A stretch of 61,262 nt of DNA from an uncultured Actinomycetes bacterium (lineage in GTDB: Bacteria; Actinomycetota; Acidimicrobiia; Acidimicrobiales; Ilumatobacteraceae), in assembly GCA_937928715.1 (NCBI GenBank), contig CALEZQ010000157.1:1-61262 (forward strand), read 5' to 3'. The translations under genes and the position numbers were made by a program. Of this stretch, positions 4,034 through 43,401 are shown in pieces; positions within the stretch are counted from its first letter, which is position 1, and every line of letters starts with the position of its first letter. The notes below the pieces were generated by a model. That model worked only from the letters and a program-made list of their open reading frames with translations. It ran no database searches and was not told the DNA's origin.

Positions 4034-4126
4034 GAACTCTTGCTCACGCTCGCGTCATCCGAGCTACGCAGCTACGTCATGACCGTCGGCTGCCCTGCCC
4101 CGGCGGCTCGTGACAAGGACCACCGG

Positions 4127-19758: not shown

Positions 19759-22245
19759 ATGACTGCGGCACCGAGCGAACCTGCAGAACTTTATGGCGCT
19801 TTCGACCAGGCGGTGGAGTCAGTTCGCCAGTCACCAAGCTCAGGGTCGGTTCTCTCTGGAAATCGGCTCTGTGTCGCCATGGCGACGTTCGACGACTTCG
19901 ACGGTGCCTGGTTCACGATTCAGTCGCTCCGCCTTCACCACCCCGGCGTGGCAGACCGGGTCTCCCTCTTGCTCCTCGACAACAATCCCGGAGGTGTCAC
20001 CTCGCGGGCGCTGAGGGCCATGGTGGATCAGATCCCGAACTGTCGGTATCTGCCATTCGAGGGGTACCGCGGAACGTCGGTCAGGCATCTCCTCTTCGCC
20101 GAGACGGATGCCGACATAGTGTGTTGCGTCGACTCGCATGTGCTGCTGAGCCCGGGATCGCTTGAGGCAGTGTTGGACTACTTCGATGACGAGAATAACA
20201 AGTTCGACTTGTTGCATGGAGTGCTTCTCGGAGCAACGAGCACTCCAGCCGCGACTCACATGGAGCCAATTTGGTCTCAAATGTTCTTTGGCCGATGGGG
20301 CCTCAATGGGCTGGCCGCAGCGAAGGGAGAGCCGTTCGAAGTGGAGATGCACGGCCTTGGAGTCTTCGCATGCATGAGAGAGAGTTGGCCTGGACTGAAC
20401 TTCCGATTCAGGGGTTTTGGTGGAGAAGAGGGCTATTTGCATGAGAAGGTTCGTCGACGTGGTGGAAGGAATGTCTGCCATCCGAGGCTCGGATGGCTCC
20501 ATCGATTCGAGAGAAACGGTGGAACTCCGTACCCGAACGAACTGAGTGACCGAATCCGCAACTTCCGCATCGGCTGGCGTGAACTTGGCTGGGATGAGAA
20601 GGTGATTGAAGAGCACTTTCGCTCGGCGATAACTGACGGACATCAGCGAGAAGCAACCTTCGCCTTGGTGGAGAGGCAACTCGCGTCGCCGCGACTGCGT
20701 CTAGAGGCCTTGCTGGTTCTGGCGAGCACGGACCAAGAGTACGACTCCACGACGACGAGTCTGCAGGGGATCGACATAGGCTGGCTAGCGGAGCGGGTGC
20801 CGATACCGCAGTCCCCGACCGATGAGCGAACGACGTCCGCTCGGCGAGCGGCCATCGAACTGGCGGGACGCCGTGGATACAACCATGCGCTCGTCTTGGA
20901 CCCGGGCGCGACCCTGAATGAGGCGACCATGGTGGAGCTCGAAGCAGCGCTGAACATGATCGACTCCGGACAGCACTCCGTAGTTGTGCTGAGTCAGGCT
21001 CGCGGGGCCGGGGTGCATCTCGTTCACTCGAGGGCTTACGAAGTCTGGCCGAGCGAAGTTGGGAACGAAGGCAGCGGCCCGTCGCTCACGCCCGCGGTAG
21101 CGCGAGTCGCCGTCGATGTTCCCAACCTTGAACCGGCCTGGCAGAGACACGTTCGCCGAGCAGTCGTGGCGGTCCTCCTGCCCCGAGACCACCTTCCATT
21201 CATACGGGACTGGAGCAAGCACCACCGCGACCAGGGTTGGGAGGTTTGCCTGCTCGACAACACCGGATCTGTGGGCTCCGTCCGCCACACGAGTGCCCAT
21301 CGACGCGACCTACTTGCCCGGCGGCAGAGGCCGAGCCACCACTCGTACACCCAGGCGATGGATGACGGAGAAGTCACCCGAGCGCTGCGAGCTTTGGTAG
21401 ACGACCTTGGGGTGATGGTGCAGGCTTGGCAACCGAAGGCCGAGGACGGCGAGGTGGTGCACGGCCAGGCGGAAGCATACGCCCGGTTCATCGAGGCGAA
21501 CCGGGCGTTCGTCGACTGGGCAGCCTTCATCGACGCCGATGAGTACCTGTGTGCCGGATCGAGCCGCGACTGGGATGACCTCCTCGACCGATCAGAAGCA
21601 CAAGGCTGTCCGCGTATCCTTCTCGACGCAGTTCGCTACGAGCGGCGTTGGAGTGAGCAAGGGCTACCACGATCTGTTCCAACCCTGCAAGCGACATCAA
21701 TACAACACGGCGGCTCAAAGAACCTCGTCAAGCTTCGGGATGTCACGCGTGCAGACGTGCATTGGGCATGGGAATTCGGAGAGAACGACCTGTATGCAAA
21801 TCCCGACAGACTCGCCTTCGGATTCCGACATTACAGGGATGGCGGCAAGGTCGACGATCTCCGGCTCTCGCGTCGCAAGCTGAGTACGTGGATCGACGAG
21901 AGTGTAGCAGTGCAGCCGAAGACCAGTTCGCAGGATCACGTGATCACTAGAGAACAAAGGCGGAATGATGAGATGGCTGTGACGACAGAGGGATGGAGGC
22001 CAAGGTGGAGGGAGGGTCTGGAGACCGCTGAGGTTGCTGATGGCATGGTTGTCTACGGCAGCGAACTCGACGATGTCAGTCACCTCAACAGTACGGCAGC
22101 AGCGATCTTCCTCCTTTGTGATGGAAAAGGCAGTCGGCGCGACATCGAACGCAGCTTTGCTGAGGTCTTCGCGCTGACGGAGCCGGCCATTGAAGATGTC
22201 GACCGATGCCTAGAGCAGCTCTATGCGCAGGGATTGCTGCATTGA
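19759..22245 (+). CDS. Fusion protein: GT2 glycosyltransferase, second GT2_4/GT92-like domain, C-terminal PqqD-like RiPP recognition element
   Basis: ATG 19759 with GAGGGG 3-8 nt upstream. GT2 blocks: LCVAMATFDDFDG, LLLLDNNPGG, CVDSH. Second domain: VVAVLLPRDHLPFIRDWSKHHRDQGWEVCLLDNTGS ... AFIDADEYL. C-terminal PqqD signature: MVVYGSELDDVSHLNSTAAAIFLLCDGKGSRRDIERSFAEVFALTEPAIEDVDRCLEQLYAQGLL. Confidence 0.8.
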   Translation: MTAAPSEPAELYGAFDQAVESVRQSPSSGSVLSGNRLCVAMATFDDFDGAWFTIQSLRLHHPGVADRVSLLLLDNNPGGVTSRALRAMVDQIPNCRYLPFEGYRGTSVRHLLFAETDADIVCCVDSHVLLSPGSLEAVLDYFDDENNKFDLLHGVLLGATSTPAATHMEPIWSQMFFGRWGLNGLAAAKGEPFEVEMHGLGVFACMRESWPGLNFRFRGFGGEEGYLHEKVRRRGGRNVCHPRLGWLHRFERNGGTPYPNELSDRIRNFRIGWRELGWDEKVIEEHFRSAITDGHQREATFALVERQLASPRLRLEALLVLASTDQEYDSTTTSLQGIDIGWLAERVPIPQSPTDERTTSARRAAIELAGRRGYNHALVLDPGATLNEATMVELEAALNMIDSGQHSVVVLSQARGAGVHLVHSRAYEVWPSEVGNEGSGPSLTPAVARVAVDVPNLEPAWQRHVRRAVVAVLLPRDHLPFIRDWSKHHRDQGWEVCLLDNTGSVGSVRHTSAHRRDLLARRQRPSHHSYTQAMDDGEVTRALRALVDDLGVMVQAWQPKAEDGEVVHGQAEAYARFIEANRAFVDWAAFIDADEYLCAGSSRDWDDLLDRSEAQGCPRILLDAVRYERRWSEQGLPRSVPTLQATSIQHGGSKNLVKLRDVTRADVHWAWEFGENDLYANPDRLAFGFRHYRDGGKVDDLRLSRRKLSTWIDESVAVQPKTSSQDHVITREQRRNDEMAVTTEGWRPRWREGLETAEVADGMVVYGSELDDVSHLNSTAAAIFLLCDGKGSRRDIERSFAEVFALTEPAIEDVDRCLEQLYAQGLLH

Positions 22246-23093
22246 TCGATTTTCAGTTGCTTTGGTTTAGAGTGAGAATTGATGCGACTAAAGCGCATCC
22301 ATCCGCGGCCGAGGTGCTCAGCTTCTTGGTGCAGAATGCGCACCAGGACGACCTTGAGCCGACCAGAACCCTTCAACTGGAAGTAGCCGACCGCGGCTGT
22401 GGCTTCCAACTTCGGGAGTTCGGAAGCATTGGACAGTGGGTGGCCGACTCAACGGAGCTCCTTGACGCGGTCTATCAGCTCGTCCATCAGCGGGTCTTCG
22501 ATGAAGCCACCTTCCGAGGGTGGGTGCGACTCCATTCCGCGACCTTCGACCTTGGTAGTACGAGATGCCTCTTGGTGGGTCCGTCAGGGGCGGGCAAGAC
22601 GACCCTGTCCTGTGCTCTTGTGCTGAACGGAATAGATGTACAGGCCGACGAGAACACTTTCATACGGGGCGGAGTGGCTCTGCCGCTGCCTCGTCCCTTC
22701 CATCTGAAAGCCGGTATGGAGCACTATGTCCCGTGCCTTCGGGAACACACAGGAGGGCTTCCGGCAGTGCGAGAGGGAGCCGTGAGAGCATGGTGTCCAC
22801 GAGTCGACGGGCCGTGGACGATTGACAAGCGGCGCGTCGATCTCATCGTGTTTATTCGTCGCGATGCTCACTCCACTCGTGCCGAACGGCTTGAGACCGC
22901 GTCCGCCTTTGGGTCACTACTCGAGCATTCCTACCGCGGATCCGAAACTATCCGCCCGGTCGTCAGGGAGTTAGCGACGGTGCTCAGGAACGCGCCAGCC
23001 TTCTCGATGACCTGGCGGACGGCAGTCGAGGCCGTCGACCAGCTCCAGACGCTGATCAAGAGTGGCCCTACAACCCCTACAAGCGAAAGGTAG
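22206..23093 (+). CDS. HPr kinase-like (HPrK C-terminal-domain-like) P-loop protein
   Basis: LHSATFDLGSTRCLLVGPSGAGKTTLSCALVLNGIDVQADENTFI parallels the HPrK core lHg..v.v.G.GvLi.G.SG.GKS..al.L...Gh.LvaDD. The start is uncertain: ATG 22206 overlaps the upstream gene by 40 nt, and TTG 22242 or GTG 22272 are alternatives. Confidence 0.7.
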   Translation: MPRAALCAGIAALIDFQLLWFRVRIDATKAHPSAAEVLSFLVQNAHQDDLEPTRTLQLEVADRGCGFQLREFGSIGQWVADSTELLDAVYQLVHQRVFDEATFRGWVRLHSATFDLGSTRCLLVGPSGAGKTTLSCALVLNGIDVQADENTFIRGGVALPLPRPFHLKAGMEHYVPCLREHTGGLPAVREGAVRAWCPRVDGPWTIDKRRVDLIVFIRRDAHSTRAERLETASAFGSLLEHSYRGSETIRPVVRELATVLRNAPAFSMTWRTAVEAVDQLQTLIKSGPTTPTSER

Positions 23094-23100
23094 ATCAACC

Positions 23101-23448
23101 ATGACTACACCCGACCACACATCCGACAGCGACTCCCGTCGCGAGTTCCTGATCCGGCTCGGCGCAGTCGGCTTTGCAGCTCCTGTTGTCACGACCTTCG
23201 CGGGCGGGACCGTCTCTGCGTCACGCGCTCCTACTGCCAACGACTCAACAGGCGGGGCAACCACAACAGTTGATGGCCAGTCTGGGGTCGGCTCGACGAC
23301 GTCGACGGTCACCGTTCCCGACTCCAGCACGACGACGGTCGCGAGCCCGACGACCCCACCTCCGACGACCCCACCTCCGACGACCCCACCTCCGACGACC
23401 CCACCTCCCACGACACCACCCCCATTCACGACAGCACCCCCATTCTGA
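23101..23448 (+). CDS. 115-aa Tat-signal, Ser/Thr/Pro-rich protein with a C-terminal (PTTPP)5 tract; candidate modification substrate
   Basis: ATG 23101, 8 nt after the kinase stop, with GAAAGG 10 nt upstream. Near-consensus Tat motif SRREFLIRLGAVGFAAPVV. The remainder is TANDSTGGATTTVDGQSGVGSTTSTVTVPDSSTTTVASPTTPPPTTPPPTTPPPTTPPPTTPPPFTTAPPF. Confidence 0.6.
   Translation: MTTPDHTSDSDSRREFLIRLGAVGFAAPVVTTFAGGTVSASRAPTANDSTGGATTTVDGQSGVGSTTSTVTVPDSSTTTVASPTTPPPTTPPPTTPPPTTPPPTTPPPFTTAPPF
23351..23425 (+). repeat. 15-bp tandem repeat (cgaccccacctccga), 3 perfect copies plus 2 variant copies, encoding TTPPP units
   Basis: Read directly: unit starts at 23351, 23366, 23381 (perfect), 23396 (1-nt variant) and 23411 (degenerate). 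Confidence 0.85.
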
Positions 23449-23645
23449 GGTCATGGTCGGCAACCCGTCGTCAGTTGCCATTGTGGAGCCGTCTGCAGAG
23501 CCTGCGGACCACGCTTCGGCAACTCGGTCGGCGCCGGACGGCGGTGACCACCTCCCAGCGCCATCGCCTGGTGGCGAGGAGAAGTAGGGGACTGAGTTGT
23601 CTCAGAAGTGCGACCGCGCAGTCCGATCGAATCAATGGATGAGTC

Positions 23646-25568
23646 ATGCAGACGTCCGCACCAACCCGTTCCCTGCTCCGAACTCTTTCTCGGATACTCG
23701 CGGTCTCGCGAGAGCAAGAAAGACCAGCTGCTCAACTGTGGCCTGCGCTGCTGACCCTCTCGGAGAGCCATGCGCTCCAGCCAGCCCTGTGGGAAGCAGG
23801 GCTGAGGCGCGGCTGGTGGGTGAAGCTGGGGCCCGATGTGAGGCAGATGCTCGAGTTCAGGCTCGAGGCTGGCCGTACTCACGCTTTCCTTCTCCTGGAG
23901 AGCGCGTATGAGGAGAACGCTCATCGAAACAGCAACCTCCTCGGCCAGATGGAGTCGATCAGCAGCGTCCTGGGAGCCGCTGGGATAACCTTCGAGCCAC
24001 TAAAGGGCATCTACGCAGTTCAGGCCGGTTGGTGGGCCGATCCGACCATCCGAGTAATGCGAGACATCGACATCCTGGTGCCGGAGAATCAGGCATGGCA
24101 CGCGTGGCAGTTGCTGACCGAGATCGGATACGTGCCAGTACACGTCAGAAAGGACCCTGACGCCACGCAACACCTACCCGCCCTACACCTGCATGGGGCC
24201 GTCGGCTCCGTCGAGATCCACACAGCGCTCGCCCGTCGACGATGGGAGCACGTGCTTCCACCGGCGCATTTGTTCAGCGGCGTCATCGACCGAGACACCT
24301 TCGCTGTCGCACACCTTATCGCGAATGCTCAACTGCACGACGAAGGGCATCTTCTCGCCAAGGTGCCACTGCGTTCACTCTACGAGCTCGCAACCATCGC
24401 CAACGGACCACACCGTAAGAACATCGAATGGGGCTACATAGAGGACAGATTTCGGAAGGCGACGGCATCCAACGCACTAGAGGCCTATCGGCGCCTCGCT
24501 CGTCGCTTGTTCTCTTGTGACATCCCGTCCTCCAGATGGTCTCCAAGCGCGGACGCAAGGGCGACAGCTGCAATCGCCCTGTCATCGAGGCCCACCCTTG
24601 CTTCGAAAGTAGAGCCGTTTGCATACTTGCCAAGGTCCCTCTCAGCGCACCGAATGTCAGATCTCTATGGCGTCGACTGGACGTGGCGCGATCGGGTCTC
24701 CCACGTTGCAGGGCGGTCGCGTCCAAAGAAGAGTCACCTACATGTTTCGATTATCAAAGACCCGGGACCCTTTGGCATCAACAACCATACCTTCCTTCAC
24801 CGGTTGGGACTGGACTTGATCGACAGTATGACTGTTTCGGTGAACGACTACGACGCCCAGGCCGATCTGGTCGTCGTCTTCAATCATCTTCGTGAACCCG
24901 TGACCGTCAACGCGCCCGAGAATCGAGTCATCAAGGCTCTGCACGAGTGGCATCATGCTCCCTCGGCGGCGGACGAATACTCGATTGTGTACCCGCTGGC
25001 GTATGGCCCCGCTGATCCTCGCAACAGATTCGAGCCACTATTCGGGCCGTACTATGTCGACAAGCCGGCGGAATTCCTGCTGAACCAGACGCAGCAGAAG
25101 CAGCTCGACCGCGTCGGATTCTGCTACTCGGTGGGATCACCTTACCGTGTCGCGCTCTCTGCACTCGCCAGCGTGGATACGCTCTACCGCGATCGAAGTA
25201 CGTGCAAATGGACCTTCGGACAGAACCACCGATACTGGCTTGCGACGGAAAATAAGGTATCTGATGCCTACATCTCCGAGAAGCTATCGGACGGCATCCT
25301 CCTCGGGTGTTTCGTCTTCTACTCGGGATCTGCAAGAGCATCCGAGCACTTTCACCCGGATTGCTTTCGGGATGTCACGGGACTCAGCCCTGTCGAGGTC
25401 GGCGCTGTGATTTCTGAGGCGATCTCCAGCAGCGCCTACAGCAACGCCCGGGAGACCATACTTGCGGAGCGCAGGCGGCTACTTCTTGAGCGGTCGTTCG
25501 CTGCTCGATGTCGCTCCATCATCGATGAGGGCCCGGCGGCGCGACCAAGAAGGATGCTACTTCGCTGA
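23646..25568 (+). CDS. Fusion protein: NTP_transf_5-type nucleotidyltransferase-fold domain plus GT10 (fucosyltransferase-like) domain
   Basis: The N-terminal half has the NTP_transf_5-like core FEPLKGIYAV...IRVMRDIDILVPENQAWHAWQLLTEIGYVPV. The C-terminal half has the GT10-like motif YWLATENKVSDAYISEKLSDGILLGCFVFYSG (compare FENS...DYVTEK...G.VPVY.G) and an upstream ADLVVVFNH block. Confidence 0.7.
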   Translation: MQTSAPTRSLLRTLSRILAVSREQERPAAQLWPALLTLSESHALQPALWEAGLRRGWWVKLGPDVRQMLEFRLEAGRTHAFLLLESAYEENAHRNSNLLGQMESISSVLGAAGITFEPLKGIYAVQAGWWADPTIRVMRDIDILVPENQAWHAWQLLTEIGYVPVHVRKDPDATQHLPALHLHGAVGSVEIHTALARRRWEHVLPPAHLFSGVIDRDTFAVAHLIANAQLHDEGHLLAKVPLRSLYELATIANGPHRKNIEWGYIEDRFRKATASNALEAYRRLARRLFSCDIPSSRWSPSADARATAAIALSSRPTLASKVEPFAYLPRSLSAHRMSDLYGVDWTWRDRVSHVAGRSRPKKSHLHVSIIKDPGPFGINNHTFLHRLGLDLIDSMTVSVNDYDAQADLVVVFNHLREPVTVNAPENRVIKALHEWHHAPSAADEYSIVYPLAYGPADPRNRFEPLFGPYYVDKPAEFLLNQTQQKQLDRVGFCYSVGSPYRVALSALASVDTLYRDRSTCKWTFGQNHRYWLATENKVSDAYISEKLSDGILLGCFVFYSGSARASEHFHPDCFRDVTGLSPVEVGAVISEAISSSAYSNARETILAERRRLLLERSFAARCRSIIDEGPAARPRRMLLR

Positions 25569-26378
25569 ATGTTCGACGGGGGTGGTGCCACCCTTGGAGG
25601 ATGAGATCACCAGGGTGGCGAACTCGCGTGCGAGGTCGCTCAGGAGCTTGGCACAGAGTTCGAGTCCCTCCACAATCGTCTGATGACTGCTGTCGAGCTG
25701 TGCTGGCTGACTGAGGAACCAGTCGCTGGGGCAATCGGCGGATGCTCTAGGCCGGGGCAGAGGTTCCCTCAATGTCGTCGGGGGTGATGCTCGCAACTCA
25801 AGGGGGAGTGCCCCGGCAAGCTTCAAGCGGATGTAGGCAGCAGACTTCGAATCGCCCTCGCGCTCGAGTTGCTCGACCGAGTTCGTGACCAGCTGAACGC
25901 ACATGTCGGTCCATAGTCGACGACGTTCCTCCCATCTCTCGGTGTTCATCGAGGCGAATGGGGTGCCATCGACGAGCGACAAAGCCTCAACGACGGAGGC
26001 TGGGTCAAGGGATTGAGTCAAGGATTGGAATTGGTCTACATCGCACATCACCACGTCGCGATTGAGGCGTAGTCGACCTCCGACGCGTTGGATTGCCTCG
26101 ACTCCCAAGACACGTCGGACGCGATACAGCGCGGAGGAGAGTACCCGTGTGGTGGCGTTAGTGCCCCACCCCAACTCCATGACTTCCTGATTCGTAAGCC
26201 ACGAGGACGCAGCACCGAGCGTTGTGAGCAACACGATCTCGGACATTCCGAGATGGATATCGACGTCGTCTTTGAGTACTCGGGTTGGTCCAAGTAGACG
26301 GAGCTCAAACAGAGGGGTCCTCGTCGAGCGAGGGTCTATGCCTGTGTCCTTGCTAAGTCTCACTTCGTCGGAGGTCAT
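25557..26378 (-). CDS. SARP-family regulator (OmpR-type winged helix plus BTAD)
   Basis: ORF 25557..26468. The ATG at 26378 forms ATGA with the upstream gene stop (26375-26378). LFELRLLGPTRVLKDDVDIHLG ... ALYRVRRVLG is typical of a SARP DNA-binding domain, and a helical BTAD-like region follows. It converges on the 23646 gene with a 12-nt overlap. Confidence 0.7.
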   Translation of the reverse strand: MTSDEVRLSKDTGIDPRSTRTPLFELRLLGPTRVLKDDVDIHLGMSEIVLLTTLGAASSWLTNQEVMELGWGTNATTRVLSSALYRVRRVLGVEAIQRVGGRLRLNRDVVMCDVDQFQSLTQSLDPASVVEALSLVDGTPFASMNTERWEERRRLWTDMCVQLVTNSVEQLEREGDSKSAAYIRLKLAGALPLELRASPPTTLREPLPRPRASADCPSDWFLSQPAQLDSSHQTIVEGLELCAKLLSDLAREFATLVISSSKGGTTPVEHSAK

Positions 26379-27487
26379 GGCGTGTGCCTTCCTTGGGTCG
26401 TCGACTCGCCGTTCGGACGGGCATGAGAGGTCTGGTGCGCAAGGCCATCCGCTAGATGCCGAACGCACGGTTGGCTTCGCGGAGCCAAGAATGATCGCGG
26501 CGGCCAGAACTTAGGCCAGAGAAAGGCAGCACGATCGGACCATGGAAGTTCGCGAGCGGCCGCCCACCAGGCCGCCTTCCCGTACAAGGGCGGCGTCAGA
26601 TGGTCCTCAAGCGATTCCAATTGCGCCAGTCCTGATTGAGGCAGATGTTGAGCAGCCCTCCAGAGGCCGTGGCTGACAGCCAACTCAACGCGCCAGAATT
26701 TGGAGCGGGCCATGGCTGCTCTCAGGACGTCTGGCCGTGCAGCGAGCAAGCTGGCATCGCGTGCCGAGTGACAGGAGAGGCTCGCTGACCCTGCAAGCCG
26801 AAGCGCCGTGGCGATTAGTCGGCTCGGCGGGTCGAGACACTCGATGGTTGTTCCGTTGAGCGACAGCTGCTCTGTCCTGGCCCCCAACACGTGAATCGGA
26901 ATACGCATTCCGGCCCAACCTCCGACGAGCGTCCGGTGAATCACCACTTGCGTGTTTCCGGCGCGGAGGGTCCGAGTAGACGCGAAGCGGTCGGCCCAAG
27001 CGACACTCGGTGGAGGCAAGAGCTCCGCTCCGCCCACAGACTGGACGACGTCTACCAAGGCGCTGAGGCTGTGCACAGCGAGGAGTTCGACCCTGCCAGC
27101 CGGGCGCAGGTGGGGTGCTGCAGCGTCCTTGTGAGCATTGGCGAGTCCGCCAATTGCGACGAGCCGTGCCCCTGAGCTCTCGGCCTTGTCTGCCAGCGAG
27201 TAGAGCGTCGCTTCGGCTACGGTGCTCTCCTTCTGCTCCGCCAGGGCCCCAGCCGCCAGCGCTCTCAACACCAGTCCTGGCGTCTCCGTGTCTGTAAGCA
27301 GGCTCAGCGCAAGAGAACAAAGGTCTTCGGATCTGCAGCGCTGGAGGAACCAGTCTGCAACGGCTGGAACGGAGAGTATCCCCGGCTGGATTGACGCTTC
27401 GGGCGAGCAGCCCGGAAGATGGGCATGCCTGACCAGTTGCAGCAGACGGTCGCCCGGATGGGTGCCCAGGTCAACGTCGAATCCCAC
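26375..27487 (-). CDS. Second NTP_transf_5-like protein, possibly catalytically degenerate
   Basis: 370 aa with a GTG start. The overall layout resembles the N-terminal half of the 23646 protein, but the position equivalent to RDIDILV reads GRVELLAV, so the acidic residues are not obvious. This is a by-eye similarity only. Confidence 0.5.
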   Translation of the reverse strand: MGFDVDLGTHPGDRLLQLVRHAHLPGCSPEASIQPGILSVPAVADWFLQRCRSEDLCSLALSLLTDTETPGLVLRALAAGALAEQKESTVAEATLYSLADKAESSGARLVAIGGLANAHKDAAAPHLRPAGRVELLAVHSLSALVDVVQSVGGAELLPPPSVAWADRFASTRTLRAGNTQVVIHRTLVGGWAGMRIPIHVLGARTEQLSLNGTTIECLDPPSRLIATALRLAGSASLSCHSARDASLLAARPDVLRAAMARSKFWRVELAVSHGLWRAAQHLPQSGLAQLESLEDHLTPPLYGKAAWWAAARELPWSDRAAFLWPKFWPPRSFLAPRSQPCVRHLADGLAHQTSHARPNGESTTQGRHTP

Positions 27488-27529
27488 AGCCGGCCTCCGA
27501 GTGTCGGGCGAAGTCGAGTGGACCGTGAC

Positions 27530-27913
27530 TCAGCAAGTCTTCACCAGTCCGTTGGAGAGCATCGCCTCGAGGACTCCGTTGACCTGCGACTGGCCACTGT
27601 CGCCGTCAACGGATGGCAACACTTCGCGTGCCACGAGTTTCCGCAGTTGCCTGATGGACGTGGGTGAGGTGAGCAGAGTCCACGCAACTGCGGCAATGCC
27701 CCGCATCTCAACGATCGAGATCTGACCTTGCGACGACCGCGTCGCTGCGACGACAACACTCCCACATAGTCGCCACGCAACGGGACTTCGCTTCACCATG
27801 GTCGTGACGGCGACAATCGTCTGCTCTTCAGACTCCTGTCGAGGACGCGAGCGAGCGTCTGGTGCCCGAGCAGAGACTGCAATCTCGCCGACCGAATGAA
27901 AGGAACTGCTCAT
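27530..27913 (-). CDS. Stand-alone PqqD-family protein (RiPP recognition element-like)
   Basis: ORF 27530..28162; plausible starts are ATG 27913 or ATG 27799 (89 aa, typical PqqD size). VAWRLCGSVVVAATRSSQGQISIVEMRGIAAVAWTLLTSPTSIRQLRKLVAREV...VNGVLEAMLSNGLV follows the PqqD pattern. Confidence 0.65.
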   Translation of the reverse strand: MSSSFHSVGEIAVSARAPDARSRPRQESEEQTIVAVTTMVKRSPVAWRLCGSVVVAATRSSQGQISIVEMRGIAAVAWTLLTSPTSIRQLRKLVAREVLPSVDGDSGQSQVNGVLEAMLSNGLVKTC

Positions 27914-28323
27914 GGCCAAGTATTCAAAGCTGGCTTTCTGCGTCGTAGCCAATTGGAGCGAGTTGTCCGGCTCCCTGCACCACGGTCTTCTCAGCCGCTG
28001 GCTTAGGACATCTCCGGCGGGATGTGTGCATGAAGGGATCACTTGGGAGGGTAAAGACGCGGCGCGTCCACTTGCGACGTCGCCTGATTTCCAGCATGAC
28101 GCGTGGCCGAATCGAACCAGAAAAGATCTATGCCTGTGGGACGGGGGAGCGCCCAAAGGCACTTGACAATCTCAGCTCGCGCTACCAGGAGCATCCACCA
28201 AAGTTGCTGATTCGTTTCAAGTGTTCAGGGCATAGTCTGAGTCTGGCGCCCGACGGTGAAGTGAGCGGAGGAACCCGAGTTTCCGTTCGCGATGCACTGC
28301 CTATCCAAGTGAGGATCTTTACC

Positions 28324-30093
28324 ATGAGCTGGGTCCAACCCAACCACAAATCTCCTACGCGTCGCTTTCCTGGCGCGCTGGCACTCGCCGGTGTCGCCCT
28401 CGTAGGCGGTCTGGGCGCAGCGGCGTCTTCAGCAGCCGCTCCGGTCGACCCGGACTCCGGACCAACGACCGGTGGCGACACCGTCACTATCGCCGTTCCG
28501 CAACATTTGAGTTTCGTCGAGGTCGCGGCGGCCGCATCGTTCGCACTCGCGCTGTCGGTTGACGGTACCGTCTGCGCCTGGGGCAGCATCTACCCGGGGC
28601 TTGGAGACGCGGCCATGACTGAGACGAGCTCGACCCCTGTGACGGTGGCATTCCCTGTGGGCACCGTCATCACCGACATCTCCGCTCACAGTGCCTTCGC
28701 CGTCGCGCTCAGCGCAGACGACCAGGTGTACACCTGGGGCCAGTCACCTCCAGGCGCCGGTATCAGTCCGAACGAAGCAGCAACCCCCACAGCGATCGTG
28801 GGTATTCCCGCAGGAACCGACATCGTGCAGGTCGTGAACTCCTCGGCGGGGTCGGGCGGCAACTATGGCCTAGCGCTGACGGCTGATGGAGATGTGTATG
28901 GCTGGGGGAGCGGCTCCTACGGCGTGCTCGGTGTCGGCTCCGATGGGATGAACCTCTCGTCCGACACGGCCATCCTTGTACCGCTCCCGAATCTCCCGGC
29001 AGGAGTGACGCTGGTGCAACTGGCCGCAGGGCCGACAAGTGTGGTCGCAATCGGCTCCGACGGTGCTGTGTACACCTGGGGTTCGAACAGCTACGGTGAA
29101 CGCGGTGTTGGCGACGCCAGTACTCCGACGGTGACGCCCTCGCCAGTTGCGATGGTCAATGTGCCCGTCAGCGAGACTGTGGTCGCCATCGCCGCAGGAG
29201 GGACAGTCAGTTGGCCGGTGAACTTCTTCGTCACGGATGCTGGATCGGTCTACTCGTGGGGTGCAAACGAGCGTGGGGTCGCAGGGCGCTCCTTCGAATC
29301 GGGTACCGACGGATACACCCCGGGGCTCGTTGACCTGCCGTCCGGGGTGGTCGCGACCTCTGTTAATGCCGGAGGCGACACCATCAGCGCCACAACCTCT
29401 ACGGGTGCCGCCTACGCTTGGGGCCTCAACTACGAGGGGCAGTTTGCCAATGGTTCGACAGATCCGTCTCAGACAGCGACACCGACTCTCGTTAACGGTG
29501 GCGTACCTTTCGTCTCCGTCGTCCCTGGCGGCGGCAGCAACGCCGGGGCAGTGATTGCCCTGCCGACAGCAGGCGGTGTGCTTGGCTGGGGCTCTACAAC
29601 ACGCTCGATGGCTGGACCACCAGGCGACCCGGCGACAACGCCGGTAGCCATCGACTTCGGTGTTCTTTCCGTCACCTCGGTGACGTTCGGTGGCACCCCG
29701 GCAGCAGTGACGAGCGAACAGCCCGGTTCCGTGACGGTAGCGGTTCCATCGCACGCCGAGGGTCAGGTCGATGTAGTCGTAACGGTCGCATGCGAGTACT
29801 GCGGCGCATCGACAACCGTTCTGTACGAGTCCGCGTACACCTATGTTGAGTTGACGTCTACAACCTCAACCGAGGCCACCACCACGACGACGACGTTGCC
29901 AACCGCGACATCAACCATTGCACCAAATACGACAACCCTGACTGAGGCGACCACAACCACCGCCCTTGGCGCCGCGCCCATTTTGCCGGTGACGGGCGGG
30001 CGTTCAAGGGACGCAGTGGTACTTGGTGGCCTGCTGGCCGCCGGAGGCGCCGCACTGATTCTCGTGTCGCGTCGTCGCCTTCGAGGTGCCTAG
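28324..30093 (+). CDS. RCC1-repeat (beta-propeller) surface protein with IPT/TIG-like domains, a Thr-rich stalk and an LPVTG sorting signal
   Basis: ATG 28324 with GAGGA 8 nt upstream. Signal: RRFPGALALAGVALVGGLGAAASSAAAP. Repeated VY(T/S)WG..(S/N).G.LG RCC1 blades. The stalk is TSTTSTEATTTTTTLPTATSTIAPNTTTLTEATTTT. LPVTG (29983-29997) is followed by a hydrophobic helix and RRRLRGA. Confidence 0.85.
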   Translation: MSWVQPNHKSPTRRFPGALALAGVALVGGLGAAASSAAAPVDPDSGPTTGGDTVTIAVPQHLSFVEVAAAASFALALSVDGTVCAWGSIYPGLGDAAMTETSSTPVTVAFPVGTVITDISAHSAFAVALSADDQVYTWGQSPPGAGISPNEAATPTAIVGIPAGTDIVQVVNSSAGSGGNYGLALTADGDVYGWGSGSYGVLGVGSDGMNLSSDTAILVPLPNLPAGVTLVQLAAGPTSVVAIGSDGAVYTWGSNSYGERGVGDASTPTVTPSPVAMVNVPVSETVVAIAAGGTVSWPVNFFVTDAGSVYSWGANERGVAGRSFESGTDGYTPGLVDLPSGVVATSVNAGGDTISATTSTGAAYAWGLNYEGQFANGSTDPSQTATPTLVNGGVPFVSVVPGGGSNAGAVIALPTAGGVLGWGSTTRSMAGPPGDPATTPVAIDFGVLSVTSVTFGGTPAAVTSEQPGSVTVAVPSHAEGQVDVVVTVACEYCGASTTVLYESAYTYVELTSTTSTEATTTTTTLPTATSTIAPNTTTLTEATTTTALGAAPILPVTGGRSRDAVVLGGLLAAGGAALILVSRRRLRGA

Positions 30094-30199: not shown

Positions 30200-31580
30200 A
30201 TGTTGCGAACGGTAGGCGATCAGCCGACGTGGTGGGAATCGCTGTTGCCGCCCGAAGCGCTGGTGATGCCCGTCGAGCTCGAGCGTGTCGATCGGCTCCT
30301 CGATGACGTCCGGTTCTTCGCGCCGTTCGTGCCGTTCTTCCACGCCACGCACGGGCGGCCGTCGATCCCGATCGAGACGTATCTGCGGTTGATGTTCTTG
30401 AAGTACCGGTATCGGCTCGGGTTCGAGACGCTGTGCCGGGAAGTGACGGACTCGATCACGTGGCAGCGCTTCTGCCGGATCCCGCTCGGTGGTCGGGTGC
30501 CGCACCCGACGACGCTGATGAAGATCACGACCCGCTGCGGCCAGCAGGCCATCGACGCGTTGAACGAGGCGCTGCTCGCGAAGGCGACGAGGCCAAGGTG
30601 TCGAAGACGAACCGGTTGCGGGCGGACACGACGGTGGTCGAAGCGAACGTGTCGTATCCGTCGGACTCGTCGCTGCTGGCGAAGGGTGTCGCGCGGATGG
30701 CGCGCTCGGTGCAACGTCTGAAGGCGGTGGGGTTGGCGTCGCGGACGAGGTTCTCGAACCGGACGCGCAGCGTGCAGTCGCGGGCGCGGTCGATCAACGC
30801 GAACCTGCGACGCCGCAGCGACGACAAACTCGTCGAGGTCCGCCGGATCAACGGTGAGCTCGCTGCGATCGCAGAGCATGCGGTGCGCCAGGCCGAGCGG
30901 GTGGTCCGAACGCCCGCCGCAAGCTCGCATCGAGCAGCCAGCCATGCGGGCGGGCTCGTGTCGAGATCAACCGGTTGGAACAGCTCGCCGAGCGGACTCG
31001 CAAGATCGCCGCCCAGTGCCGCCAACGCCTAGCCGGGACAACGCCGGACGGTGCGACGCGGGTCGTGTCGTTGCATGATCCCGACGCGCGGCCGATCGTG
31101 AAGGGCCGCCTCGGTCGTCCGGTTGAGTTCGGCTACAAGGCACAGATCGTCGACAACGAAGACGGCATCATCGTCGACCACAACGTCGAGCAAGGCAACC
31201 CGGCCGACGCACCCCAGCTCGTCCCGGCGATCGAGCGCGTGAAGCAGCGCACCGGCCGGGCGCCGCGGGCTGTGACCGCCGATCGCGGCTACGGCGACGC
31301 CGGTGTCGAGAACGACCTGCGTGATCTCGGAGTGCGCTACCCGGCGATCCCGACGAAGGGCAAACCCAACGCGGCGCGTCGCCAGGTCGAGCAACGACGA
31401 GCATTCCGCCGACTCGTCCGATGGCGCACCGGCAGCGAAGGGCGCATCAACTGCGCGAAACGCGACTTCGGCCTCGCCCGCACCCGCTACACCGGCATCG
31501 AAGGCGCCCGAACCTGGTGCGGCCACGGCGTGTTCAACCACAACCTCGTCAAGATCGCAGCCCTCACCGACACCAACTGA
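30200..31580 (+). pseudogene. IS5-family transposase disrupted by two -1 frameshifts
   Basis: The reading runs through three frames. First: MLRTVGDQPTWWESLLP...ALNEALLAKA. Shift near 30586 to EAKVSKTNRLRADTTVVEANVSYPSDSSLLAKG...AERVV. Shift near 30909 to NARRKLA...VSLHDPDARPIVKGRLGRPVEFGYKAQIVDNEDG...ADRGY. No slippery heptamer is visible at either site. Confidence 0.75.
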
Positions 31581-32725: not shown

Positions 32726-33730
32726 GTGATCACTTTGGAAGATTGGGCGTTGATTCGCAGGTTGTCGGCGGAGGGGGTGCCGAAGGCTCAGATCGCTCAG
32801 CGGTTGGGGATCTCGCGCACGACTGTGGTGAGGGCGGTGATGTCGTCGGCGCCACCGAGGTATGAGCGGGCGCCGGTGGTGACGTCGTTTGCGCCGTTCG
32901 AGGCGCGGGTGCGGGAGTTGCTGGCCGAGTTTCCGGAGATGCCGGCAACGGTGCTTGCGGAGCGGGTTGGCTGGTCGGGGTCGATCACGTGGTTCCGCGA
33001 CAACGTGCGTCGGTTGCGACCTGAGCATCGCCGTCCGGATCCGGCTGATCGGCTGGTGTGGGCGGCGGGTGATGCTGCGCAGTGCGATCTGTGGTTCCCG
33101 CCGAAGCGGATCCCGCTCGAGAACGGCGCGACTGCGTTGCTGCCGGTGTTGGTGATGGTCGCTGCGCACTCGCGGTTCACGACGGGTCGGATGATCCCGT
33201 CGCGACAGACGCCGGACCTGTTGCTGGGGACGTGGTCGTTGTTGCAGGATCTGGGCAGGGTGCCGCGCCGGTTGATCTGGGACAATGAGGCCGGGATCGG
33301 TCGACGCGGGCGGCTGGCCGCGGGTGTGGGCGAGTTCTGCGGAACGTTGGCTACCCGGGTGCATCAACTCCGCCCGCATGACCCTGAGTCCAAAGGTGTC
33401 GTTGAACGCCGCAACGGGTTCTTCGAGACTTCGTTCATGCTCGGCCGGAAGTTTGTGTCGCCAGCCGATTTCAACGCCCAGTTCACCGAGTGGTTGCAGC
33501 TCGCCAACAGCCGTGAGGTGCGCACGATCAAGGCCCGACCGATCGATCTTGTCGACGCGGACCGGGCAGCGATGCTGGCGTTGCCGCCAGTGCCGGTGCA
33601 GCTCGGATGGCGCAACGAGATCCGTCTCGGTCGCGACTACTACGTGCGTGTCGACTCGTCCGACTACTCGGTGGACCCGAACGCAATCGGCCGGCTCGTT
33701 GTCGTCACCGCTGATCTTGACACGAGGACT
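32726..33730 (+). pseudogene. istA: IS21 IstA transposase, 3'-truncated by the internal deletion
   Basis: HTH: ITLEDWALIRRLSAEGVPKAQIAQRLGISRTTVVRAV. DDE-region blocks: CDLWFP, LVMVAAHSRF, RLIWDNEAGI, HDPESKGVVER. IstA-like sequence stops at ADLDTR (~33725), after which the frame yields low-complexity P/S/T/R text. Confidence 0.8.
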
Positions 33731-33741
33731 ACCTCGCCGCC

Positions 33742-34392
33742 GTGCTCGAACGCGAGGTCTCAGCCCGCAACGCGTCCGGTGCCGAACAACGCATCCGCTG
33801 GGCCGGATTCCCGGCCCGCAAGACCCTCGACGACTTCGACTGGGACCACCAGCCCACCGTTCGTCAGCAAGTCGCCGCGCTCGCCTCCGGCGCGTTCCTC
33901 GCCGAAGCCCGCAACGTCGTGCTCCTCGGCCCGCCCGGCACCGGCAAAACCCACCTCGCCACCGCGCTCGGCGTGACCGCCGCCCACCACGGGCATCGGG
34001 TGTTGTTCGCCACCGCCGTCGACTGGGTCGCCCGGCTCCAAGACGCACACCGCCACGGCCGGCTGCCCACCGAGCTCGCCCGGCTCCGCCGCTACGGACT
34101 GATCATCATCGACGAAGTCGGCTACCTGCCCTTCGAGCAAGACGCCGCGAACCTCGTGTTCCAACTCGTGTCATCGCGCTACGAACACGCCTCGCTGATC
34201 CTCACCTCGAACCTGCCCTTCTCAGCCTGGGGTGGCGTGTTCGGCGACCAGGCCGTCGCCGCAGCGATGATCGACCGCATCGTCCACCACGCCGACGTCC
34301 TCACCCTGAAAGGCGCCAGCTACCGGCTCCGCAACCGCGGCATCGACACCCTGCCCAGCATCCGCACCACCACCAACGACACCCACAGCTAA
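33742..34392 (+). pseudogene. istB: IS21 IstB ATP-binding helper, 5'-truncated
   Basis: IstB-like text begins abruptly at (D)YLAAVLEREVSARNASGAEQRIRWAGFPARKTLDDFDW. Walker A: LLGPPGTGKTHLA. Walker B: LIIIDEVGY. The usual ~40-aa N-terminus is missing, and the frame differs from the istA frame at the junction. Confidence 0.8.
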
Positions 34393-43200: not shown

Positions 43201-43288
43201 CCCGGAGCTCGGTGTGTTCCGGGAGCGCGCCAGTCGGCGCGTCGCTGCCCTGCACGCGACCGTGTTTCCACCGCCGATCACAACCTGA
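40214..43288 (+). CDS. AfsR/SARP-like large regulator (winged helix plus BTAD plus P-loop NTPase plus helical repeats)
   Basis: VRVRVFGPTVVTVDGGEVAV ... AVYRLRRALG is the SARP DNA-binding domain, with a BTAD-like helical region. Walker A: VTGPGGVGKSAIV. Walker B-like: LWVIDDAHW. A long TPR-like C-terminus follows. The start is uncertain (GTG 40214). Confidence 0.8.
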   Translation: MIVGGGTRGVVRYASEGAVAVSDGAAASAVRVRVFGPTVVTVDGGEVAVTPVDSAVLATLVNFVECDKDTLGEYAWRQSPTDRAVNAAVYRLRRALGQAAIERRGDVLSLGRSIGSDLAEFSGLLGGTVCDPAMLRVALDLVTGEPFASLKEHPAWVPIRRRWGERVEGVRDALIDDMLARGDVIAALAATRQQVERNPTATRQIGRLVRLLFDSGRSVEAMRELERASHSFRSRGVDMPRSLVEMERALLKSSAGPSLLPARSGRLYGRDREERVLRSLIFGSTGLRTVRVTGPGGVGKSAIVELLSAAARDAMWVVCISRGDPVQRDAVAAFDALGALLSPGGGAVGENIAALGDLVARATRQVLWVIDDAHWAPRLLEAALSLARRFPDRLVVVAAQRSAPSAAEGLFVCDVPLVGLDPTAVGDWLSDSRVDHDVDALIAATGGEPGRVAAAVEEFRLGGVIDVRSIVKARFNGLTPASRTAIAVLASLGVPVHPAALLQSGVDQVSIAELLAQRWLIVADDRRLVLAHSCLAVVTEFGWLDDVLLCAVADLVPAERRPSEQLRRAEAIALGGPGRVDRVAHHALVACELAESASPEQFVSYCEEAAAIARTAPGFSPEAAMRIKIWLGSALRSVGRVEKGSDELWAAYSAALEAGSVDAAAFAAAAFTNPSVVTSAGMKAEAESLLQRFVDDPELGEFTAVRVAAAHAYHQLDRRSVEVGTTLAREAHRRAAALGPLDEFHVLRNLVAELSYPRTLRDEARRLFRLAVQHGNLSAATSALVYEVCADMRTQQTTFEDPRLDELAAIATSSGNEVVKNRWAGVAVAQAMLAHDVVRVAEIHADVLGRNSGSGEALPFFNRVFGLHTTLASQSNWIELDPAALAGHPTHPSLIVEDDKPIDEAVVAFCRNDSHAAAAALLQMRIGFERQQPAPLAVTRLPAAATLAIRLGDPQVARHVLDLSRQLSGHDLCQLPIVHLGPADVWLSMLAELADDPELGVFRERASRRVAALHATVFPPPITT

Positions 43289-43401
43289 TCACAGAACTCA
43301 CGGTCTCGCTTCCAGTTCAGGTCGGGGCCGTCACCGCTTCCTTCTCCAGGCGTCCGTCCCACGCAGACTTCGCTGCAAACAGGTCGAAGAGGAGCGGAAC
43401 C

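Follow-up and report, generated by a model that had tools for sequence, protein, structure and literature searches.

What does a lasso-style tailoring set do in a locus that is built around glycosyltransferases? An earlier note on the 61,262-nt window (the whole stretch of DNA analysed) had described two convergent gene sets, in which a kinase, two nucleotidyltransferase-like proteins and two PqqD-type RiPP recognition elements (RREs) from lasso peptide biosynthesis had been rewired onto glycosyltransferases (GTs). An ORF scan confirmed the geometry: four plus-strand ORFs (19759-25568) converge with three minus-strand ORFs (25557-28162).

g1, 19759..22245, plus strand: 828 aa, several GT domains and a PqqD RRE (ORF, Pfam)
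g2, 22206..23093, plus strand: HPr-kinase-related P-loop kinase, start uncertain (22206, 22242 or 22314)
g3, 23101..23448, plus strand: predicted 115-aa substrate with an acidic N-terminus, a twin-arginine signal (SRREFLIRLGAVGFAAPVVTTFAGG) and a Thr/Pro-rich tail
g4, 23646..25568, plus strand: 640 aa, NTP_transf_5 fused to a GT10-like domain (Pfam, conserved residues, homologues)
g5, 25557..26246, minus strand: small SARP-like regulator, 229 aa from ATG; the ORF reaches 26468
g6, 26375..27487, minus strand: 370-aa orphan ORF, annotated as a gene only on the JGI contig
g7, 27530..27913, minus strand: possible small PqqD-like ORF, uncalled in both public annotations

Gene content of the locus

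Profile searches and homologues showed that the plus-strand genes are genuine and largely as described before. PqqD and Glycos_transf_2 were recovered in g1 and NTP_transf_5 in g4, whereas g6 and g7 matched no family. On the minus strand, the SARP-like regulator is supported only at the level of a paralogue: g5 has no Pfam match but shares 31% identity (E 3e-14) with aa 32-187, at the N-terminus, of the BTAD-AAA regulator encoded at 40214-43288. It is lineage-specific and missing from other loci. The proposed second NTP_transf_5, g6, found no homologue but itself in 5.8 billion proteins, and hhalign against NTP_transf_5 gave 95 colinear columns at a probability of 3% (P 0.013); it may be a degenerate paralogue in which DxD has become RVE, a putative member of the system. 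The proposed second PqqD, g7, was not confirmed either (hhalign against a PqqD alignment, probability 54%, P 1.3e-4; AlphaFold2 model unusable at pLDDT 48). When every sizeable ORF of the 61-kb window was scanned, no Asn_synthase-like, transglutaminase-like or ABC_tran protein was found, in agreement with the reported absence of a lasso core.

g1 joins a GalNAc-transferase-like enzyme to an RRE

The domains of g1, all on the plus strand, are as follows.

Domain A, 19864..20688, aa ~36-310: GT-A catalytic domain, polypeptide GalNAc-transferase-like (alignment, AlphaFold2, Foldseek)
Second domain, 20701..21138, aa ~315-460: GT25-like (Pfam in relatives, Foldseek)
Third domain, 21445..21852, Pfam match aa 563-698: GT92-like or Glyco_tranf_2_4-like
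C-terminal domain, 22069..22239, aa 771-827: PqqD-type RRE (Pfam PqqD)

The label GT2 given to g1 holds at the profile level (Glycos_transf_2, E 3e-6, above the gathering score) but is too broad. The AlphaFold2 model of the N-terminal region (pLDDT 85.4) found GalNAc-T2, T4, T10 and T12 as its best Foldseek matches (E 5e-13), and nearly all of the top 50 were polypeptide GalNAc-transferases, with collagen galactosyltransferase in addition. From these matches, the key enzyme of g1 appears to have the fold of a mucin-type polypeptide GalNAc-transferase. The alignment with these enzymes of family GT27, which include Toxoplasma GalNAc-T3, covers ~300 columns at an E-value of ~5e-13, with a sequence identity limited to 13-17%. 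In the alignment of the domain A family (A1), D125-x-H127, G219-FGGEEGY-226 and H248 are invariant, the first two being the DSH and FGGEEGY motifs. We take the DxH and FGGEE (GGEE-type) motifs to be equivalent to those of GT27. The likeness extends to the putative acceptor, a Pro/Thr-rich, mucin-like repeat. Unlike GT27 enzymes, g1 has no ricin-type lectin domain, and the PqqD RRE stands in as the substrate-targeting module; g1 also lacks a signal peptide and a hydrophobic N-terminus and is cytoplasmic, whereas the GalNAc-transferases are Golgi-lumenal.

The second domain is assigned as GT25-like from Glyco_transf_25 matches in 9/24 family members and from COLGALT1/GLT25D1 among the Foldseek matches. 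For the third, the suggested GT2_4-like identity reached only E 0.04 (Glyco_tranf_2_4), while Glyco_transf_92 was borderline, just below its cutoff (E 8.4e-5, 22.7 bits versus 23). This domain was otherwise seen only in a Desertimonas relative and at locus L025, and a local HMM detects it in 5 loci. The claim that an RRE is covalently joined to GT domains was borne out: PqqD, with a cutoff of 23.4 bits, scores 32.2 bits (E 1.3e-7), above gathering like Glycos_transf_2, and the conserved LN..A..CxG motif is kept.

g3 belongs to a family of Thr-rich proteins with a Tat-like signal

The existence of the 115-aa Tat-signal, Thr/Pro-rich protein is supported by its sequence, a GAAAGG ribosome-binding site upstream and its conservation at other loci. 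g3 carries an RREFL twin-arginine motif and a tail with five PTTPP units, encoded by a 15-nt repeat present 4.9 times. The family comprises 47 loci, and the RR pair is invariant in 47/47 members. Its signal region has the pattern RRxFLKKMAAxGF and then a hydrophobic stretch; next come an AxA site or a lipobox (LAGC) and, after that, poly-Thr or PTTT repeats. TIGR01409 (TAT_signal_seq) matches 9/24 members, weakly to moderately; together with the motif, this suggests a Tat signal. The conserved stretch could instead be purely an RRE recognition sequence. In lasso substrates of this kind a core of ~20 aa ends in a Ser, which PsmK phosphorylates; these candidates have a poly-Thr tail of 45-190 aa behind the Tat signal, and no conserved C-terminal Ser was found among the g3-like proteins.

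The kinase and nucleotidyltransferase

The HPrK-like identity of g2 was upheld in part. Pfam Hpr_kinase has no match, but NCBIfam HprK_rel_A does (E 7.7e-10, 38 bits, far under the cutoff of 200), and the conserved residues H110, GK130-131 (P-loop) and DE148-149 (an Asp-Glu pair) are present. Homologues of g2 occur at 48/86 loci.

g4 has two domains, both on the plus strand.

NTP_transf_5 domain, 23736-24512, aa 31-289 (Pfam)
GT10-like domain, 25224-25559, aa ~527-638 (via homologues)

The first is secure (E 9e-22), and its catalytic D140-x-D142 is retained. For the second, the C-terminal part of g4 has no direct Pfam match, but Glyco_transf_10 is found in 10/10 tested homologues, 7 of them above the cutoff.

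The kinase of pseudomycoidin biosynthesis puts a phosphate on the peptide, and PsmN is required for the addition of hexose to that phosphate (PMC6993621), as the earlier note had stated. The same three protein families, represented there by PadeK/PsmK, PsmN and the PqqD-type RRE of lasso B1, stand side by side here, with the P-loop of g2 and the catalytic Asp residues of g4 kept. The locus differs from lasso systems in having no cyclase, leader protease or ABC exporter.

A conserved cassette across genomes

A search with the N-terminal half of g1 gave more than 438 homologues. In a collection with one genome per species, the family defined by its first ~400 aa gave about 400 matches in genomes of many phyla, and 416 stretches of domain A were confirmed by tblastn. 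Carriers in culture include Rhodococcus, Propioniciclava tarda, Oricola indica and Bradyrhizobium diazoefficiens. Neighbours were counted at 49 non-redundant loci whose flanks reached 5 kb or more in both directions. PqqD adjoins the domain A GT in 43/49 of these; the kinase is adjacent in 33/49, NTP_transf_5 in 32/49 and a Tat-signal, poly-Thr ORF in 33/49. Kinase and NTP_transf_5 occur together at 31 of the 49 loci, the kinase alone at 2 and NTP_transf_5 alone at 1. By a heuristic search, 45 Tat/T-rich ORFs lie within 3 kb of the GT (409 kb searched) and none lies beyond 6 kb (447 kb searched). At about one-third of the 49 loci no such ORF was detected; either another substrate is used there or detection is incomplete.

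Natural fusions connect all parts of the cassette: (i) GT-PqqD at many loci, (ii) kinase-GT at at least 12 loci, (iii) GT-kinase-NTP_transf_5 at L016, (iv) LicD-PqqD-kinase-NTP_transf_5 at L019 and probably at its close homologue L036, where LicD is putative, and (v) PqqD directly joined to the Tat-signal/Thr-rich protein at at least 8 loci. There are multiple RRE-bearing enzymes per locus. The Bradyrhizobium GT is fused with a UDP-hexose 4-epimerase (GalE), which may bear on sugar-nucleotide supply and which we count towards glycosylation. De novo clustering of neighbourhood ORFs from 81 non-redundant loci revealed no other widely conserved family; besides the five components, none recurs at more than 12 of the 81.

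Rather than a lasso tailoring set that was rewired in a single genome, the locus is one example of a widespread cassette that stands on its own. Its invariant core has three parts (GT, RRE and Thr-rich Tat protein), and the kinase and NTP_transf_5 form an accessory module that about one-third of loci lack. Conserved neighbourhoods and natural fusions in dozens of genomes strongly support the proposal of an undescribed RRE-guided glyco/phospho pathway that acts on a linear exported protein without a lasso core; the absence of lasso genes supports it too.

There are three other ways to read these genes. The first is that a lasso or other classical RiPP cluster has its core enzymes elsewhere in the genome and that only tailoring genes lie here. 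HPrK-like kinases, NTP_transf_5 and PqqD are indeed typical accessories of some lasso clusters (PMC6993621), but no Asn-synthase-like or transglutaminase-like protein occurs in the 61 kb, the Pfam gene tables of three related loci list none, the 81-locus clustering argues indirectly against it, and a lasso-type core is missing from the conserved small ORF. We regard this as very improbable.

The second is that the enzymes make or decorate an envelope glycopolymer (an exopolysaccharide, teichoic-acid-like polymer or glycolipid), with the Thr-rich Tat protein as a co-exported anchor or scaffold and PqqD as a protein-protein adaptor. Four GT-type domains, the LicD and GalE fusions, the third of loci without a detectable Thr-rich ORF and the nearest named families (TIGR04352 and TIGR04353, of the "HPr-rel-A system" of unassigned function) would fit this. 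It is nevertheless unlikely: no flippase, polymerase, priming phosphoglycosyltransferase or polysaccharide-export family is conserved nearby, the core GT is structurally nearest to protein-modifying enzymes, PqqD is joined straight to the Thr-rich protein, and the linkage of that ORF to the GT is highly specific (45 versus 0).

The third concerns g2 only, which might, in the manner of HPr kinase, be a regulatory switch that controls glycosylation by phosphorylating a protein partner such as the RRE or the GT, with NTP_transf_5 reversing or reading the mark. Membership of g2 in the HPr-kinase-related superfamily and the dispensability of the pair are compatible with such a role. Against it, the sole characterised members of the pair act on the peptide itself (PMC6993621), and the many kinase fusions to the GT and to NTP_transf_5/LicD fit an assembly-line arrangement; a switch therefore seems quite improbable.

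Proposed pathway

We consider it fairly probable that the cassette works in the cytoplasm and, guided by its RRE, O-glycosylates a mucin-like Tat substrate, taken to be g3, perhaps with phospho-modification as well. The parts, their homologies and their genomic linkage are supported by the analysis, whereas the chemistry and the sequence of steps are inferred. g3 would consist of an N-terminal Tat export signal and a mucin-like Thr/Pro-rich tail. The C-terminal RRE of g1 would bind the conserved N-terminal/signal region, an interaction that we infer only from co-occurrence and fusions, and keep the tail at the catalytic domains. The GT-A domain, with its DxH metal site, would add the first sugar to Thr hydroxyls, and further domains, GT25-like and GT92-like in g1 and GT10-like (fucosyltransferase-like) in g4, could extend the glycan. 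By analogy with PsmK/PsmN, g2 would be paired with the NTP_transf_5 domain of g4: the kinase would phosphorylate a hydroxyl of the peptide or of a sugar, and the nucleotidyltransferase-fold enzyme would then put a sugar or phospho-alcohol on the phosphate. The bulky product would leave by the Tat pathway, a route open to folded cargo, and signal peptidase, or signal peptidase II in relatives with a lipobox, would cleave the signal to give a secreted or lipid-anchored bacterial "mucin". g5 probably governs expression of the locus.

Comparison with known systems

Fusions of an RRE to a PF00535 glycosyltransferase have been called unprecedented and uncharacterised (RRE-Finder, PMC7470986; a 2025 structure-based RRE survey, PMC12710340). 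Term searches found no mention of a kinase or nucleotidyltransferase in either main text, nor of a Tat signal in that of PMC12710340; these papers therefore give the fusions neither a substrate nor partners. A literature search found no paper describing the cassette, which is undescribed as a bacterial gene system and whose components most likely decorate a Thr-rich protein before export. In contrast to lasso tailoring, it is centred on a glycosyltransferase, with the kinase and NTP_transf_5 optional.

The nearest named relatives are TIGR04352 (HprK-related kinase A) for g2 and TIGR04353 (PqqD family peptide chaperone) for the stand-alone PqqD of sister loci, likewise a kinase-plus-PqqD cassette outside known RiPP classes; the scores fall far short of the curated cutoffs, with 38-48 bits where 200 is required and 21-27 bits where 35 is, respectively. 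In our literature search, the name HPr-rel-A system led to NCBIfam/TIGRFAMs only and to no paper.

Serine-rich repeat glycoproteins (GspB/Fap1) are O-glycosylated in the cytoplasm by GtfA/B and then exported by the accessory SecA2/Y2 system; the substrates are very large adhesins and the enzymes are GT4/GT8 types. On the proposed reading, the cassette would resemble this system in its repeat-rich Ser/Thr protein, its dedicated cytoplasmic GTs and an export route that tolerates modified cargo. It differs in having an RRE, a kinase and NTP_transf_5, in its predicted use of Tat instead of accessory Sec, and in its putative substrate of ~100 aa.

The locus belongs to a widespread cassette

Gene-neighbourhood conservation was checked across genomes, and the locus of the glycosyltransferase (GT)-PqqD fusion (g1) turned out to be one instance of a widespread cassette. 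Hundreds of proteins share 41-50% identity with the first ~400 residues of g1 (domain A), and many of them are ~550-aa GT-PqqD fusions. Scanning a single genome for each species gave 416 confirmed domain A stretches. Within Actinomycetota, domain A occurs in Acidimicrobiia, Solirubrobacterales, Streptosporangiaceae, Frankia, Rhodococcus, Nocardia and Propioniciclava; beyond this phylum it occurs in Alpha-, Gamma- and Deltaproteobacteria, Acidobacteriota, Planctomycetota, Bacteroidota and others. The nearest sister loci are found in Ilumatobacteraceae/Acidimicrobiales MAGs. The cassette is also present in cultured bacteria (Rhodococcus, Nocardia/Rhodococcus globerula, Propioniciclava tarda, Oricola indica, Bradyrhizobium diazoefficiens and Frankia) and is thus directly testable.

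Iterated HMMs built from the window proteins were searched against all ORFs of the retrieved loci, and counts were taken from the 49 non-redundant loci that were flanked by 5 kb or more in both directions.

Table. Gene types accompanying the glycosyltransferase
PqqD beside GT: 43/49 loci
HPr-kinase-related (g2-type) kinase beside GT: 33/49 loci
NTP_transf_5 beside GT: 32/49 loci
Tat-signal/Thr-rich ORF beside GT: 33/49 loci
Kinase and NTP_transf_5 both: 31/49 loci
Kinase without NTP_transf_5: 2/49 loci
NTP_transf_5 without kinase: 1/49 loci

When all ORFs around the GT in 81 non-redundant loci were clustered de novo, no additional widely conserved family emerged. Every component is joined by natural fusions: GT-PqqD, kinase-GT, GT-kinase-NTP_transf_5 (locus L016), LicD-PqqD-kinase-NTP_transf_5 (locus L019) and, in at least eight loci, PqqD fused straight to the Tat-signal/Thr-rich protein. 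Several loci encode two or three RRE-bearing enzymes each, for example a methyltransferase-PqqD and a PqqD-GT2 fusion. In Streptosporangiaceae and Frankia, the loci consist of GT, PqqD and the Thr-rich protein only. This trio is the core of the cassette, with the kinase/NTP_transf_5 pair as an accessory module.

Some relatives also contain a LicD-family phosphotransferase domain, located either in the PqqD/kinase/NTP_transf_5 protein or in the GT-PqqD protein. These fusions suggest that a phospho-alcohol or phospho-sugar is transferred.

L019 11557-14082, plus strand, LicD fusion
P0069, LicD fusion

The predicted substrate carries a Tat-type signal and a Thr-rich tail

The 115-aa ORF g3, which the earlier note had described as a Tat-signal Thr/Pro-rich protein, proved to be a real gene with a GAAAGG ribosome-binding site upstream, 8 nt past the stop of the kinase gene g2. 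The twin-arginine motif SRREFLIRL is followed by a hydrophobic stretch and a Thr/Pro-rich tail; the Tat-type signal reads SRREFLIRLGAVGFAAPVVTTFAGG. Part of the tail is encoded by a tandem repeat.

23347-23420, 15-nt tandem repeat coding for PTTPP, 4.9 copies

A 200-N gap (L001 13613-13812) coincides with this repeat in the organism's GenBank assembly, where g3 is uncalled. Because the gap falls in the repeat, its copy number is uncertain.

A g3-like ORF was found in 47 non-redundant loci, all following one common plan: a short acidic N-terminus, RR, an uncharged stretch, an AxA-type site or lipobox, and a Thr-rich tail. The RR is invariant (47/47), within the motif RRxFLKKMAAxGFxVPxVxTF in Actinomycetota and RRxLLKxxGxG...LPxxWxxPVVxSVxxPAHA in Proteobacteria, and Streptosporangiaceae proteins have a lipobox (LAGC) in place of the AxA-type site. 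The tails are variable in length (36-190 residues) and consist of poly-Thr or PTTT-type repeats. In its S/T-R-R-x-F-L-K motif, hydrophobic h-region and AxA site or lipobox, the N-terminus fits the classic form of a Tat signal, and NCBIfam TAT_signal_seq (TIGR01409) recognizes 9 of 24 family members. No Pfam family covers the g3-like proteins; compositional Pfam matches to eukaryotic mucin and glue proteins were not counted as homology.

A heuristic requiring a Tat signal plus a Thr-rich region found 45 ORFs less than 3 kb from the GT versus 0 in 447 kb at distances above 6 kb; a Tat/Thr-rich substrate ORF was not detected in about a third of the loci. The first figure counts against, and the second for, the main rival explanation, which we consider improbable: the enzymes would have a glycopolymer as their target, and the Thr-rich protein would merely stand by.

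Public annotations of the JGI contig and of a Desertimonas MAG contain an opposite-strand ORF at the position of g3 instead.

Window 22971-23429, minus strand, public gene call over the g3 site
L086 3925-4383, minus strand, public gene call over the g3 site
L002 7007-7285, minus strand, public gene call over the g3 site

The substrate-like gene thus seems to escape annotation systematically, being either overlooked or replaced by a call on the opposite strand, which is probably why the cassette has gone unnoticed so far.

Two variants of the family were observed. In six loci from Streptosporangiaceae and unclassified Actinomycetes MAGs (L007, L011, L012, L015, L020 and L027), a Cys directly follows the hydrophobic region, with a clear lipobox (ALAGC) in L007, L011 and L012; Tat would export these proteins as lipoproteins, with PTTT repeats making up nearly all of the mature part. 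Loci L017, L024, L028, L041 and L029 include g3-like proteins with His-rich C-termini (HHHHHHFF, HGHRHHHHD), which may bind metal. The latter loci are without the kinase/NTP_transf_5 pair where the flank suffices to judge (L029 is truncated).

The catalytic domain of g1 resembles polypeptide GalNAc-transferases

In the 828-aa g1 protein, Glycos_transf_2 (E 3e-6) and PqqD (E 1.3e-7) both exceeded the Pfam cutoffs, as the earlier note had proposed. For the note's Glyco_tranf_2_4-like assignment the match was weak, and Glyco_transf_92 was at the cutoff. An AlphaFold2 model of residues 1-440, built with 24 homologues, was confident (pLDDT 85.4, pTM 0.83), and its best Foldseek matches in the PDB were almost exclusively polypeptide GalNAc-transferases: human T1, T2, T4, T10 and T12, Drosophila PGANT9 and Toxoplasma GalNAc-T3 (E ~5e-13, probability 1.0, TM-score 0.48, ~300 of 440 residues aligned). 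As modelled, the GT-A catalytic fold of g1 is closest to GT27 structures. The collagen galactosyltransferase COLGALT1 was matched as well, in keeping with a GT25-like second domain in g1.

Invariant across the domain A family are D125-S-H127, GFGGEEGY (219-226) and H248, which are reminiscent of two GT27/GT7 features, the Gal/GalNAc-T motif and the DxH metal site. By sequence, g1 does not fall within GT27: Pfam sees generic Glycos_transf_2 only, Glyco_transf_7C matches 4 of 24 family members with E of at least 0.02, and sequence searches of the PDB yielded no informative hit to g1, to g2 or to the NTP_transf_5 fusion g4. A ricin-type lectin domain was not found in g1; GT25-like, GT92-like and PqqD domains come C-terminally instead. 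Since g1 is without a signal peptide, its chemistry would be cytoplasmic. One fusion protein in Bradyrhizobium diazoefficiens is a hint that the sugar donor may be UDP-Gal or UDP-GalNAc.

L083 8405-10888, plus strand, GalE-GT fusion with N-terminal GalE UDP-glucose 4-epimerase (318 bits, above cutoff)

The accessory module retains catalytic residues

The g2 protein has a P-loop and matches NCBIfam HprK_rel_A (HprK-related kinase A; E 7.7e-10, well under the curated cutoff). Pfam Hpr_kinase did not match g2. Its GK and DE residues are conserved, and one fused homologue weakly matches Hpr_kinase_C. The NTP_transf_5 domain (PF14907) assigned earlier to g4 was strongly recovered (E 9e-22, 78 bits vs a cutoff of 31) with D140-x-D142 conserved; catalytic residues are thus kept in both enzymes. 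For the C-terminal third of g4, neither a direct Pfam match nor a hit in a word-index homologue search was obtained, and an exhaustive HMMER search returned 140 relatives. All ten relatives tested carry Glyco_transf_10, above cutoff in seven, so the earlier 'GT10-like' call holds transitively. On the lasso peptide pseudomycoidin, the tailoring pair PsmK and PsmN adds a phosphate to the peptide and then hexose on that phosphate (PMC6993621).

A model of RRE-guided glycosylation before Tat export

The cassette suggests a widespread and coherent RRE-dependent post-translational modification. From the parts, homologies, linkage and fusions found by the tools, we infer the chemical steps and the RRE-signal interaction of the reading that we favour and judge reasonably probable: cytoplasmic, RRE-guided glycosylation of g3 followed by Tat export. 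In this model, (i) the RRE of g1 would bind the conserved N-terminal/signal region of g3, (ii) the GalNAc-T-like domain of g1 would begin O-glycosylation of the Thr-rich tail, (iii) the GT25-, GT92- and GT10-like domains would lengthen the glycans, (iv) the kinase and NTP_transf_5 protein would add phosphate and a phosphate-linked group, as PsmK and PsmN do on pseudomycoidin, and (v) the bulky product would leave via Tat and its signal would be cleaved, with lipidation in those relatives that have a lipobox.

The cassette can be likened to a three-way hybrid of RRE-guided RiPP tailoring, mucin-type O-glycosylation and the glycosylate-then-export logic of serine-rich repeat glycoproteins, which are glycosylated in the cytoplasm and exported afterwards. 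If the model is true, RREs would gain a new class of enzyme and of substrate, their guidance reaching as far as O-glycosylation at multiple sites on exported proteins of ~100 aa. Bacteria would then possess a counterpart to the mucin-type O-glycosylation of eukaryotes. It would also explain the use of Tat by the substrate as the export of bulky cargo modified in the cytoplasm, and PF14907 and HprK-related kinases, both large orphan families, would gain a function outside lasso clusters.

A bolder joint reading, which we offer tentatively as the less probable case, is that bacteria in many phyla produce glycoproteins of genuine mucin type. An RRE would target a cytoplasmic homologue of the animal polypeptide GalNAc-transferases; this RRE would read the Tat signal peptide itself and double as a Tat 'proofreading' chaperone, delaying export until glycosylation is done. 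The optional kinase/nucleotidyltransferase module would add phosphodiester-linked groups, paralleling POMK/fukutin chemistry on the dystroglycan mucin domain, and the product would be a secreted or lipid-anchored bacterial mucin.

Comparison with lasso clusters and other known systems

The absence of a lasso core noted earlier was confirmed by Pfam scans of essentially all sizeable ORFs in the 61 kb. These contained no Asn-synthase-like cyclase (lasso C protein) and no ABC transporter, and no transglutaminase-like leader peptidase (lasso B/B2) was matched by Pfam in the window. The gene tables of three related loci likewise contain no Asn-synthase-type gene, and no such family is conserved in the 81 loci. 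The lack of any further conserved neighbourhood family argues against hidden lasso genes. A PqqD-type RRE, as in lasso B1, is present in g1 above the Pfam cutoff. With two defining enzymes absent from the window, we rejected a lasso cluster.

Two other identities were also rejected. For the HPr-rel-A system, scores were far below the curated equivalog cutoffs: 38 bits for g2 and 46-48 bits for its homologues vs 200 for TIGR04352, and 21-27 bits for the PqqD homologues vs 35 for TIGR04353. A defence-system reading was dropped because PADLOC models gave P-loop noise only.

RRE-glycosyltransferase fusions were previously given as uncharacterized architectures (PMC7470986; PMC12710340). A term search of both main texts found no kinase and no nucleotidyltransferase, and in PMC12710340 also no Tat signal. 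Our literature searches found no paper describing the cassette.

Organization and surroundings of the locus

The two convergent gene groups described in the earlier note are present.

19759-25568, plus strand, four ORFs
25557-28162, minus strand, three ORFs

The SARP-like ORF g5 has no Pfam match and is 31% identical (E 3e-14) to the N-terminus of a larger regulator in the window.

40214-43288, plus strand, 1024-aa BTAD + AAA_16 regulator with an N-terminus paralogous to g5

The remaining minus-strand ORFs, g6 and g7, could not be confirmed in their proposed roles as a second NTP_transf_5 and a second PqqD protein. Among 5.8 billion proteins, g6 has no homologue except itself, and its hhalign match to NTP_transf_5 is colinear and non-significant, with the catalytic DxD replaced. 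For g7, which neither public annotation calls, the hhalign probability for PqqD was 54% and a single-sequence AlphaFold2 model was unusable (pLDDT 48). A dN/dS-type test of g6 and g7 against the second assembly had no mismatches to work from over the 13 kb of the JGI contig. Both ORFs may be decayed duplicates, or may not represent genes. Promoter and terminator scans gave nothing exceeding shuffled background.

The same organism is represented by metagenome assemblies only, GCA_003455715.1 and the near-identical JGI contig. The GenBank contig equals the window sequence except for the N-gap, and the JGI contig shows 0 mismatches over 13.2 kb and a single gap.

21078-21092, 15 nt (5 codons) of the g1 linker between the GT25-like and GT92-like domains, missing from the JGI contig

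GC and GC3 of the locus are below those of its flanks (GC3 0.64-0.68 vs 0.74-0.89 in flanking genes), and IS elements lie to its right, which together suggest horizontal acquisition.

30975-31580, DDE_Tnp_1 transposase of an IS element just right of the locus
32726-34392, IS21-type IstA/IstB pair

The flanks otherwise contain a GGDEF-EAL protein, a LuxR-type regulator, housekeeping genes and, on both sides, very large repeat surface proteins.

3962-11461 and 43129-50905, plus strand, very large repeat surface proteins

One of these surface proteins has 2499 aa with SdrD_B/CLIPPER repeats, and another has 1567 aa (DUF7507/DUF11/DUF7617) and adjoins a 1072-aa ORF without a family. A further surface protein adjoins the locus itself; it could offer the glycosylation enzymes another Thr-rich target, or be unrelated.

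28024-30093, plus strand, RCC1-repeat/TIG surface protein with a Thr-rich linker, then an LPVTG sortase motif and a C-terminal membrane anchor
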